A DNA stretch of 43,755 nt from a virus: the UHGV virus genome UHGV-0008389; one strand, written 5' to 3'. The notes under the pieces were generated by a model. That model was given only the letters and a program-made list of their open reading frames with translations, ran no database searches and was not told where the DNA came from. Shown in pieces: positions 2,299-37,696 of the stretch. Both the position numbers and the translations under genes were made by a program. Numbering within the stretch: the first letter of the stretch is position 1; each line of letters begins with the position of its first letter.

Positions 2299-3054
2299 TT
2301 ATTTACCTATAGCTATCCATCGACAATAAGTTGTATTGCTACCTGATGGCTGGGAACCCATTAAGCTAAAACCAAGACCGGTACTAACGGGTGTAGCAGC
2401 AAAAGAAGGAATTGAATTTACTGAAGATTCCGTATTATCATACGACACAACAATTTGCACGGTTGAGTAGTTGGTAAATGCAATGGGGAAATTTATAAAA
2501 GTGGGAGATCCAATCGCTCCTGCCACTGAAATACCACGTTGAAAGATAGTTCCATCAGGGTAACGACACCAGCCATTTCCACTTGTAAAGCTAGACATGT
2601 CAGGAATTTGATTGGTGCCGGTCCCTACATTTCTTTTAGCCGCTTCTCCTAAACCAAGATATGAAAAAGCATCTTTCCACCCGGCACCATTGCTGTTTGG
2701 ATCAGATAGATTTCCTTCTGTTGTGTTAATGAATATTCTTTCCCCATCGTTCGAGATGAGCATCGCCCCTGACGGATATCCAGAAATCTCCGAAGCAAAT
2801 TCAGAATCAAAAGTATTCAGCGCCCCGCTGCTCGACCATCTACCCAGAGCAGAAAGTTCGTATAAAATTTGGTTCATATCCTGGCCTTTTGGCGGCAAAC
2901 CGCCAGCAGATTTCAGGATCATTGTTATTGGAGGAAACCCCAGTTCATACGATGCTGAGTTATCTCCTGCAGGAGTGGTTGGCAATATTACCCCTCTCTG
3001 TCCATTAACTCCAAATGGCTTAGGTTGTTTTTTAGGTGAGTCAGAACGATTCAT
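2299..3054 (-). CDS. Tail fibre protein
   Basis: 251 aa, Gly/Ser/Thr-rich; position between the baseplate gene and tfa. Confidence 0.65.
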   Translation of the reverse strand: MNRSDSPKKQPKPFGVNGQRGVILPTTPAGDNSASYELGFPPITMILKSAGGLPPKGQDMNQILYELSALGRWSSSGALNTFDSEFASEISGYPSGAMLISNDGERIFINTTEGNLSDPNSNGAGWKDAFSYLGLGEAAKRNVGTGTNQIPDMSSFTSGNGWCRYPDGTIFQRGISVAGAIGSPTFINFPIAFTNYSTVQIVVSYDNTESSVNSIPSFAATPVSTGLGFSLMGSQPSGSNTTYCRWIAIGK

Positions 3055-3056
3055 GC

Positions 3057-3695
3057 TTAATTCCTATAAAATGTGCCATCATTAAACGGATAGGCATCAG
3101 ATGCAAAACCAAAATAATGGCTAATGATTTTACGTATATTTACCAGAACACCACTCGGAACGGGCATCACCTCATAATTCGTGAGAATAGATTCTTCGTA
3201 TGGCGCAAGCTCAAATTCAAACGTTATTCCTATTGTCATATCTCGATAATTTACGCAATATGCTCTCCCTCTTTGATAAAAAAGTATTTTTAGAAATTTA
3301 TTTATATCTGTAATGGTGGCTATGCTTATGTTGGCAAATGCCTTGCAAAAAATCAATGTTCTGTAAGCGTCATCCCCGAGCCTGACACTTGTTGTTTCCT
3401 GCACTCCACCATAAAAAGGAGAATCATTAAATGGTGAAGGATAATCAGTGCTTCCATCGTCAGCCTCACTAAATCCAAATGAGTCACTGTCAATTGGAGC
3501 GACGATGTATCTGCTTATACCTACTATTTTCCCCCACATATCAAGGCCAAAAGATTCACACGTTGTCAAATCCCATACCTTTTTGATGAATTCATCTGTG
3601 AAGTCATCTAGGCTTACCGCCTGATTAAAAGTGTCAATGACAGATAATAGTTTTTTGCTTGCCGAGTATTGGGTAAGAATTGTGTCTTCCCACAT
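3057..3695 (-). CDS. Baseplate/tail protein (Mu gp48 / YmfQ-like, tentative DUF2313)
   Basis: 212 aa; synteny with the J-like baseplate gene upstream and tail fibre downstream. Confidence 0.55.
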   Translation of the reverse strand: MWEDTILTQYSASKKLLSVIDTFNQAVSLDDFTDEFIKKVWDLTTCESFGLDMWGKIVGISRYIVAPIDSDSFGFSEADDGSTDYPSPFNDSPFYGGVQETTSVRLGDDAYRTLIFCKAFANISIATITDINKFLKILFYQRGRAYCVNYRDMTIGITFEFELAPYEESILTNYEVMPVPSGVLVNIRKIISHYFGFASDAYPFNDGTFYRN

Positions 3696-35577: not shown

Positions 35578-36294
<717 letters not shown>

Positions 36295-36409
36295 TTCCAA
36301 TTGTGATTTATGAAAAGTCAATTGCGCCAGATTAGCGATGATGACAAACCACTATGTCTTATCCTCAACATGAATACATTCATCGTAACCACAACAGGGA
36401 GTTTAACGA

Positions 36410-37414
36410 ATGAATACTATTGAAAATAATGATGTTTATGTGTATATAGGCGATATTCATCGTGATGGTTATCTTGATCTAACCAATAAAATCAAGAAGC
36501 GTAAGTCACAAAATGAATTAAAAAAGAATGTTATCTTCTGTGTTGCTACTTATGGCGGTGATCCTAATGCTGGTTATCGTATAGGTAGGGCTCTCCAGCA
36601 CTATTATGAAACGGTAACACTTTTAGTTGTTGGGCCGTGCAAAAGTGCTGGTACACTAATAGCCATAGCTGCGAATAAACTTGTTATCGGTGACATGGGT
36701 GAGCTCGGGCCATTAGATATCCAACTGAAAAAAAACGATGAAATAGGTGAGATGAGTTCTGGTTTAGCCATTATGACAGCTCTCGATGCACTGAAGGAGC
36801 GCTCTATTTCAGCGTTTAACTCATACCTTGTTCAGATAAAATACGAAAACCAGATAAGCACTAAAATATCTGCTGACATCGCAACCAGACTTACAGAGGC
36901 ATTGATAGCCCCCATGGCTGCTCAGATAGATCCAATAAAACTTGGTGAGCATCAGCGTGCGATGAGCATTGCTATCACTTATGGTCAACGGTTAGCAGAC
37001 AAGCCAAGTAGTCTAAAAGAAGGGGCGTTAAGCAAACTCATCGCTTCGTATCCTTCACATGGATTTGTTATCGACAGAAAAGAAGCCAAGGAACTTTTCA
37101 AGTGTGTTGAATGTCCTAAAGGTATAACAGAAATACTCGATAATTTTTTCTGTGATAAGATTCATAGTGGTGAAATCCCAACGTTTGGAAAACCAAGGGT
37201 GATGGATTTCCCTCTTACTACACAAGATAAAGAGGACAATACTAATGCCGAAGAATCTGCAACCGGAGATGGAAATTCTCAACAAAATGTTGGAAAGCCA
37301 GATCCAAGAAAGTCGCAATCTGGCAAGAAAAGCGGAACAGCACCTGAACGAGATCAAAAAAGAACTGGAGCCGTATCAATTCAACCACCAGATGAACAGC
37401 AACCTAATGCGTGA
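36410..37414 (+). CDS. ClpP/SppA-fold serine protease-like protein occupying the rexA/rexB slot downstream of cI
   Basis: 334 aa, AT-rich; GGAG-type RBS; VIFCVATYGGDPNAGYRIGRAL and VVGPCKSAGTLIAIAA fit the ClpP/S49 pattern (GG..AG..I; G-x-[AC]-x-S-x-G around a candidate nucleophilic Ser); about 70-aa hydrophilic C-terminal tail; same strand and operon position as rexAB in lambda; terminator at 37445-37470. Confidence 0.65.
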   Translation: MNTIENNDVYVYIGDIHRDGYLDLTNKIKKRKSQNELKKNVIFCVATYGGDPNAGYRIGRALQHYYETVTLLVVGPCKSAGTLIAIAANKLVIGDMGELGPLDIQLKKNDEIGEMSSGLAIMTALDALKERSISAFNSYLVQIKYENQISTKISADIATRLTEALIAPMAAQIDPIKLGEHQRAMSIAITYGQRLADKPSSLKEGALSKLIASYPSHGFVIDRKEAKELFKCVECPKGITEILDNFFCDKIHSGEIPTFGKPRVMDFPLTTQDKEDNTNAEESATGDGNSQQNVGKPDPRKSQSGKKSGTAPERDQKRTGAVSIQPPDEQQPNA

Positions 37415-37430
37415 TCTCTTTGCTCTGTAA
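37245..37430 (+). CDS. Possible overlapping small ORF (61 aa, predicted helical) in alternate frame at the 3' end of the protease gene
   Basis: ATG at 37245 preceded by AGAGGA about 9 nt upstream; product MPKNLQPEMEILNKMLESQIQESRNLARKAEQHLNEIKKELEPY... looks helical, while the in-frame protease tail is low-complexity; stop 14 nt before the terminator. Confidence 0.25.
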   Translation: MPKNLQPEMEILNKMLESQIQESRNLARKAEQHLNEIKKELEPYQFNHQMNSNLMRDLFAL

Positions 37431-37444
37431 TTAATTCCTCACAT

Positions 37445-37470
37445 CCCGGCCTCAGCGCCGGGTTTTCTTT
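37445..37470 (+). terminator. Intrinsic terminator ending the cI-protease (immunity) transcript (tIMM-equivalent)
   Basis: CCCGGC ctcagc GCCGGG followed by TTTTCTTT. Confidence 0.7.
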
Positions 37471-37626
37471 GCCTCACGATCGCCCCACCTAAAAACACAT
37501 AACCAATTGTATTTATTTGAAAATTAATAGATACAACTCACTAAACATCACAATTCAGATCTCCCGATCACCTTCCCAATCCACACACCCCTGCAAAAAA
37601 TAAATCTATATAAAAAACATACAGAT

Positions 37627-37696
37627 AACCATCTGCGGTGATGAATTATCTCTGGCGGTGTTGACACGCATACCACTAGCGGTGATACTAAACACA
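37627..37696 (+). promoter_or_regulatory. OL: Left operator OL3-OL2-OL1 and promoter PL
   Basis: AACCATCTGCGGTGATG (OL3), TATCTCTGGCGGTGTTG (OL2), TTGACA -35, TACCACTAGCGGTGATA (OL1), GATACT -10; near-identical to lambda OL/PL as recalled. Confidence 0.9.

Follow-up and report, generated by a model that had tools for sequence, protein, structure and literature searches.

Does the 3' end of a phage protease gene encode one protein or two? In the virus genome UHGV-0008389, of which we analyzed a stretch of 43,755 nucleotides (nt) on one strand from 5' to 3' (hereafter the window), the last part of a gene for a serine protease with a predicted ClpP fold is also open in a second frame, and a small open reading frame (ORF) of 61 amino acids (aa) lies there at positions 37245 to 37430. 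A preliminary description of this DNA had proposed for it a second component, a programmed frameshift site, or a sequencing frameshift altering the true C-terminus of the protease. We consider, with a probability of about 0.85, that the small ORF is a genuine and independently initiated gene, overprinted on the tail of the protease gene, and that the two form an ancient unit which probably serves as an accessory module of the lysogen. Comparison of homologous loci shows the reality of the gene, its dual coding with the protease and the pairing of the two across the family. The features on which the argument depends are listed below.

36410 to 37414, + strand: gene of the ClpP-fold (SppA/NfeD/SDH-like) serine protease, 334 aa, stop codon TGA at 37412-37414
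37231 to 37236, + strand: Shine-Dalgarno-like sequence AGAGGA, within the coding sequence of the protease, at a distance of 8 nt from the small-ORF ATG
37245 to 37430, + strand: small ORF, 61 aa, unannotated, ATG at 37245, TAA at 37428-37430, in frame +1 relative to the protease
37244 to 37411, + strand: dual-coding segment, in which protease codons 279-334 correspond to codons 1-56 of the small protein
37445 to 37472, + strand: intrinsic terminator, with a stem-loop at 37445-37462 (6 G-C pairs) followed by the T-run TTTTCTTT

The protease ORF and the small ORF have 170 nt in common (37245-37414, protease stop codon counted), and the small ORF reaches 16 nt beyond the protease stop. The gap from its TAA to the terminator stem is 14 nt. 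The position, length and frame of the small ORF, its AGAGGA ribosome-binding site and its distance from the terminator are all as the preliminary description had given them.

To determine which frame is conserved, we compared homologous loci. The locus is carried by 28 of 5,426 complete Escherichia coli genomes, as three alleles that are about 90% identical; others were taken from a Klebsiella phage and from Serratia, Salmonella, Yersinia, Pantoea, Brenneria, Klebsiella and Morganella, and a scan covering one genome per species added 58. The substitution counts, given below as pairwise differences per site, are based on eight enterobacterial sequences whose alignment over the 186 nt of the ORF has no gaps.

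Protease body (residues 5-262), protease codon positions 1/2/3: 0.139/0.069/0.525
Linker (residues 263-278), protease codon positions 1/2/3: 0.40/0.29/0.48
Overlap (residues 280-334), protease codon positions 1/2/3: 0.351/0.225/0.190

The body of the gene shows the ordinary coding pattern of the protease frame, and the periodicity of substitution changes phase in the overlap. If the +1 ORF were a meaningless by-product of a hydrophilic, low-complexity tail, with the protease frame alone translated, variation in the overlap should peak at the protease wobble position. Instead, this position varies least, and it is the third position of the small ORF that varies most (raw differences by small-ORF codon position, 347/293/540). 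Even that third position, at 0.351, changes more slowly than wobble sites in the body of the protease gene, at 0.525. The amino-acid identity was higher in the alternate frame for 27 of 28 pairs, with means of 68% for the alternate frame and 52% for the protease tail; between the window and Pantoea, the values were 58% and 30%, respectively. In addition, the two stops are spaced identically in all the enterobacterial loci, that of the small ORF coming exactly 16 nt after that of the protease, and the DNA of the overlap is more conserved than that of the linker directly upstream. The possibility that homologues conserve only the protease frame, raised at the outset as one that would undo the idea of a second gene, is thus contradicted by this comparison.

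The start signals behave in the same manner. A gapless 61-codon ORF with its ATG and Shine-Dalgarno sequence was found in the three E. coli alleles, Serratia, the Klebsiella phage, Salmonella and Pantoea, and ORFs of 60 to 61 codons with small indels in Brenneria, Klebsiella and a metagenome-assembled genome (MAG) of Aeromonadaceae. In Yersinia, which has the same ORF, the Shine-Dalgarno sequence precedes its second ATG, giving 59 codons. All 13 distinct enterobacterial and aeromonad versions carry (A/G)AGGA, TAAGGA or AGGAG 5 to 8 nt before the ATG, while the bases between and around the two elements diverge and a 3-nt indel occurs just upstream. The small ORF is therefore provided with an initiation signal of its own, as far as motifs can tell, and its retention amid diverging flanks is not expected of a by-product.

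The predicted product was also informative. Using AlphaFold2, we obtained for the 61-aa protein one helix spanning residues 3-60, with a mean predicted local distance difference test (pLDDT) score of 86.5, whereas the same DNA read in the protease frame (residues 270-334) gave a pLDDT of about 30. These models bear out the preliminary description, which had judged the peptide helical-looking and the protease tail disordered-looking, and a confident helix prediction speaks against a by-product. Predicted peptides of the small protein include NLQPEMEILNK, MLESQIQESR, AEQHLNEIK and ELEPYQFNHQMNSNLMR. Its consensus in the enterobacterial set (...EME.LN.MLE.QIQE...LA.KAEQ.L.EIK..LEPYQF...) is still recognizable at 65% protease identity, with variants such as LAPYQQ, and the motif LEPYQ(F/Q), or a near variant, is common to all the enterobacterial and aeromonad small proteins.

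The by-product explanation draws its best support from the composition of the tail. We resampled the overlap by holding the protein of one frame fixed, redrawing its synonymous codons and scoring the openness of the other frame. With the tail protein fixed, the +1 frame stayed open in 76% of the trials for the window and in 18-100% for its relatives. It is readily open because stops in this frame need codons ending in TA or TG (Leu, Val, Ile, Met), which are scarce in the hydrophilic tail; the tail has almost no L, V, I or M codons. Since composition explains this openness, the claim for a gene must rest on the comparative evidence and not on the existence of the ORF. The annotation record also favors a by-product: PGAP/RefSeq leaves the small ORF unannotated in every E. 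coli locus examined, and called homologues form only 4 clusters among 1.84 billion representative proteins; the calls that exist are sporadic and read "hypothetical protein" (P0121-P0128, P0131). One of the few public annotations of the small gene is in a Serratia record (GCA_051987355.1), which holds the 61-aa ORF (P0127) together with a gene range (2501-3518 of the locus, L071) spanning from the protease start to the small-ORF stop; its length of 1,018 nt is not a multiple of three, and the range represents merged overlapping calls.

The reverse resampling gave a different result. With the small protein fixed, the protease frame stayed open in just 0-1.6% of the trials in each of 14 lineages (P ≤ 0.016). 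Codon choice in the small ORF follows the same line: across 11 sequences, none of the 254 contexts in which the next codon starts with AA, AG or GA has a T-ending codon, whereas the share in the protease body is 34%, and Asn, for example, is written AAT ahead of C-starting codons and AAC elsewhere. On this statistical evidence, the protease frame is kept open by selection across the overlap, and the tail appears constrained to remain open and hydrophilic rather than to hold a specific sequence. The substitution and resampling patterns together indicate that the overlap is genuinely dual-coding, with selection maintaining both frames and the small protein more constrained than the tail. The locus would then be a same-strand, out-of-frame overlapping gene pair, having shared nucleotides and the signature of purifying selection in both frames.

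The pairing of the two ORFs extends far beyond the Enterobacterales. An ATG-initiated ORF of at least 50 aa runs across the protease stop in frame +1 at 66 of 72 distinct loci from several phyla, whereas the equivalent in frame +2 was present at 4 of 72; other long genes of the same loci, used as a control, gave a rate of 31%, an imperfect figure inflated by real downstream operon genes. The ORF continues 50-256 nt past the protease stop in many distant groups, among them Bacteroidota, Competibacter and Nitrosomonas, and in the non-overlapped part of a Competibacter trio the differences were 12/8/45 by codon position. The small gene is nearly or wholly separate for the two proteases that truly lack a tail: at one locus (L083) the overlap is 19 nt, and at the other (L084) the small gene is a called gene of 66 aa whose start lies 6 nt beyond the protease stop. 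In Gilliamella (L016), where the tail is short, the two ORFs overlap by about 40 nt. Among homologues, the overlap thus ranges from none to about 200 nt, and a hydrophilic tail of about 50-65 residues is found in most of them, also where the overlap is short. From these comparisons, the pair of protease and small ORF looks ancestral, the long overlap of Enterobacterales being one end of a continuum. An ORF that lies far past the protease stop or apart from it, and that changes there mainly at third positions, is again difficult to reconcile with a by-product of the tail, and we hold this explanation to be very improbable. A further protease without a tail (P0088, 282 aa, from an Alishewanella MAG) is followed immediately after its stop by a +1 ORF (3351-3524 of L082) which reads as the hydrophilic, tail-like MPQHANEEQKNVRPDDPTESQG... 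and not as the helical small protein; this protease may simply be frameshifted in or before its tail.

Programmed frameshifting, which would join the frames into a +1 protease-helix fusion, or lead by a -1 shift out of the small ORF and provide alternative C-termini, is likewise very unlikely. Both frames are open throughout the overlap, as it would need; the E. coli allele WP_001084325 carries an A-AAA-AAA run in the small-ORF frame, and at precisely this run a database protein (P0129) passes out of the small-ORF frame and into that of the protease. However, a single allele has the A7 run intact; it is broken up in the window (GCAAGAAAAGCG) as in the other alleles, so that no slippery motif is conserved, and the retained Shine-Dalgarno sequence and ATG point to independent initiation. 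In Yersinia (L075 and L076), a +1 stop lies immediately upstream of the start region, and a shift would have to fall inside the ORF. Moreover, the helical peptide was fused in frame in none of the 120 best protease homologues, and proteases without a tail are accompanied by a separate small gene. The suggestion of a programmed frameshift site in the preliminary description could accordingly not be upheld. As for the run itself, GGCAAAAAAAGCGG occurs in eight E. coli loci (L001, L003, L005-L009 and L011) at the place equivalent to window positions 37325-37340, and could be a site at which the small protein is frequently lost by phase variation. P0129, a metagenomic protein of 55 aa, is a chimera, probably due to a homopolymer indel or an assembly error.

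Still less probable is that the last 170 nt are conserved as an RNA element, either a small RNA derived from the 3' end or a regulatory structure that uses the terminator, and not for a second protein. The DNA of the segment is indeed more conserved than the linker and abuts a strong terminator, but its substitutions follow a three-base periodicity in the phase of the ORF, which RNA structure does not produce, what is conserved includes amino-acid motifs, the start codon and the Shine-Dalgarno sequence, and Rfam gave no match at E below 0.9. Finally, a sequencing or assembly frameshift, or a recent pseudogenizing indel, that split one frame and left the annotated C-terminus of the protease wrong has nothing in its favor beyond the coexistence of two open frames and can be practically dismissed: 28 complete E. 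coli genomes produced by independent projects show the same layout, as do Serratia, Klebsiella, Salmonella, Yersinia, Pantoea, Brenneria and the Aeromonadaceae MAG, with a gapless overlap among the eight enterobacterial sequences, a constant 16-nt stop spacing and a protease frame kept open far beyond chance. Of the three proposals of the preliminary description, the second component is the one that fits, the alternate frame being the better conserved, with coding periodicity, retained start signals and positional equivalents across phyla.

Several points weigh against the reading of the small ORF as an ancient gene of the lysogen. The case for its translation is built from sequence signals and comparison, and the enterobacterial sequences share descent, the pairwise counts among them not being independent observations. 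A hidden Markov model (HMM) of the enterobacterial small proteins gave significant hits in hmmsearch for its seeds only, the distant ORFs having E values of at least 0.59; the best non-seed matches were positional equivalents (L084, E 0.59; L060, E 0.77), and these were not significant. An all-against-all BLASTP of the small ORFs recovered links within close lineages only, and no false links to other ORFs. With hhalign, lineage-specific alignments gave P of 0.02-0.6 against each other, by which distant homology was not demonstrated. The equivalence between the enterobacterial and the distant small ORFs would thus depend on position, frame, size and a post hoc motif. This motif, Q..[KEQ][AGS]x.[LMIF][STA][KR], is strongly enriched among positional equivalents, where 17 of 88 ORFs have it, compared with only 4 instances in 560,000 residues elsewhere, but it was defined after viewing the sequences and is suggestive only. 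For the functional part of the reading, neither protein matched any defence model of PADLOC-DB v2 at E ≤ 1, and a literature search found no publication on this protease family in prophages.

The partner of the small gene is a protease of which, in the AlphaFold2 model, residues 1-269 form a confident folded core and residues 270-334 a disordered hydrophilic tail. The top Foldseek matches of the model were SppA, 1510-N and ClpP (E 2e-05 to 6e-04), pointing to a ClpP/crotonase fold. The closest solved structures are Bacillus subtilis SppA (3RST/4KWB) and the NfeD-type 1510-N stomatin protease (3BPP/3VIV), at E 2e-05 to 2e-04, with an identity of 13-20% and TM scores of 0.27-0.57. A profile search of PDB sequences returned weak ClpP matches only. 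Relatives are labelled in RefSeq as "SDH family Clp fold serine proteinase"; at their own thresholds, the curated SDH-type/S49 family models do not include the window protein, which missed the cutoffs of PF01972 (26.6 vs 31.3 bits) and NF047768 (34 vs 250 bits), and it passed that of CLP_protease (PF00574) only as a borderline case (20.3 vs 20.2). Its match to phrog_21683, whose function is unknown, covers the full length (3.8e-172), and it has a weak similarity to head-maturation proteases (phrog_1684, 6e-07; NF045542, 7e-08, under its cutoff). Residue S79, in CKSAGT, is invariant across 30 homologues and aligns, weakly (E 0.2-0.5), with the Ser of the ClpP "ASMG" motif, which we take to be the catalytic nucleophile. 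By this alignment, S79 is a putative, conserved nucleophilic serine at the catalytic position of ClpP. The one-genome-per-species scan also found the family to be widespread beyond phages.

The molecule that hosts the locus is a lambdoid prophage, with a cI-type repressor, the protease, the terminator and a pL-like promoter in this order on the + strand. The two outer features are as follows.

35581 to 36294, + strand: cI-type repressor gene (Pfam HTH_3 4e-11, Peptidase_S24 5.8e-29)
37661 to 37689, + strand: pL-like promoter (TTGACA-17-GATACT) with operator-like repeats on both flanks, the end of the cI-to-N cargo slot

In related loci, the relatives of the repressor gene are annotated as LexA family or cI, and an N antiterminator gene lies downstream. 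The protease and the small ORF are on the strand of the repressor, between cI and the terminator and pL, which is the slot of rexAB in lambda; their location is that of a lysogen cargo. The slot downstream of the repressor is a hotspot of defence cargo expressed in lysogens, such as rexAB and bstA (PMC8585504). By one count, 904 E. coli records match window positions 37432-37500 alone, the terminator segment; by another, it is all that roughly 870 further E. coli records share, at about 94% identity. The backbone common to other lambdoid prophages starts at the terminator. Strain 2009C-3133 (L085) has other cargo downstream of cI, a hypothetical gene of 126 aa, ahead of the same terminator. 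The unit was found with differing repressor alleles and behaves as an exchangeable cassette, whose right junction falls within about 15 nt after the small-ORF stop. Its surroundings in other hosts are given below.

Serratia, Yersinia, Pantoea, Brenneria, Morganella, Bartonella: module directly after a cI-like HTH + S24 repressor
Klebsiella: module directly after a cI-type repressor (Phage_CI_repr / HTH_3; no S24 match on record)
Cellvibrionaceae MAG, Klebsiella phage: module adjoining an XRE/ImmA pair
Neisseria: module after a phage lysozyme / DUF2514 cassette
Flavobacterium: module in non-phage surroundings

A search for a third gene shared by the loci turned up just the cI-like repressor on the upstream side (20 loci), and no further partner was found family-wide.

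With respect to mechanism, the small gene would encode a single-helix, coiled-coil-type protein of 61 residues from its own Shine-Dalgarno sequence and ATG, and in lysogens the repressor promoter likely drives transcription of cI and the module together, as far as the terminator at 37445. The helix may bind the protease as a regulator, an inhibitor, or a substrate or adaptor. The slot suggests an accessory role expressed in the lysogen, for which phage exclusion seems the most plausible. The amounts of the two products are likely, though this is speculative, to be coupled, since ribosomes translating the tail must pass over the start of the small ORF. Carrying these ideas further, one could imagine the SppA-like protease and its overprinted helix as an unrecognized two-component module of phage exclusion or abortive infection, in which the partner acts either as a gate on the protease or as a protein that the protease processes, and in which a gene placed over a possibly autoinhibitory tail makes the two inseparable by recombination and mechanically couples their translation, the pairing being ancient and spread across bacterial phyla. 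We regard this larger scheme as doubtful and offer it tentatively.

Known systems offer partial likenesses. The spanin genes Rz/Rz1 of lambda are a small out-of-frame gene inside a larger one, with its own ribosome-binding site. They resemble the present pair as a temperate-phage locus with both genes on the same strand, the +1 frame, a separate ribosome-binding site and products that plausibly act together. However, Rz1 is wholly embedded and is a lysis lipoprotein, whereas the small gene described here covers the 3' tail only, runs 16 nt past the stop and encodes a predicted soluble helix; the gene that hosts it encodes a protease and belongs to the immunity region, and joint action of the products is here a proposal. 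In C/Nu3 of lambda, the gene of a ClpP-fold phage protease likewise encodes, in its 3' part, a small and largely helical protein from an internal start. Nu3 is in frame with C, the prohead protease, whereas the frames differ here; moreover, the present locus lies between cI and pL and not in the head cluster, the family is found also outside phages, and 61 aa is far shorter than known scaffolds. Out-of-frame embedded genes and an in-frame helical protein within a ClpP-type protease gene are known already from these two cases, and the pair described here is a new and unusually well-conserved one. rexAB of lambda and bstA of BTP1 share the slot, after cI and before the terminator, pL and N, and rexAB also has two genes, but neither resembles the protease/small-ORF unit in sequence or fold, nor has the unit a PADLOC match. 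NfeD proteases stand in an operon with a stomatin homologue that they cleave; in contrast to SppA and NfeD, no membrane anchor is evident in the prophage protease. According to the title of structure 4KWB, the C-termini of B. subtilis SppA itself are bound in its active sites in self-processing, and SppA therefore gives, as far as this title goes, a precedent for a functional C-terminal tail.

If the small ORF is a gene as we propose, it clearly illustrates how the annotation rule against overlapping genes can hide a conserved small protein. The 56-codon stretch selected in two frames would be a natural example of tolerated overprinting, in which the older or looser frame is the disordered tail, and what had been an orphan "SDH family protease" of the rexAB slot in lambdoid prophages becomes a two-gene module. 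Cloning or mutating the protease tail also changes the second gene, which is relevant to any test of the protease in phage defence or lysogenic conversion.

Two minor observations concern the spacer between cI and the protease. An ORF of 37 aa, MKSQLRQISDDDKPL..., at window positions 36310-36423, fills this spacer and has 14 nt in common with the beginning of the protease gene. In the E. coli alleles its frame is uninterrupted, but conservation of the region does not extend to Serratia, Pantoea or the Klebsiella phage, the last of which has in its place an annotated 71-aa gene that overlaps the protease start. Comparison of the spacers of E. coli, Serratia, Pantoea and the Klebsiella phage gave no sign that the ORF at 36310-36423 is a gene. 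GC-rich inverted repeats, absent from the spacer of the window, are found between repressor and protease in Serratia (GCCGGCGATAGATCGGC, at about 2395-2440 of L072) and Pantoea (CCCGGCGCCAGACCGGG, at about 2385-2430 of L077); they may be terminators or attenuators, which would uncouple the module from repressor transcription in these phages.

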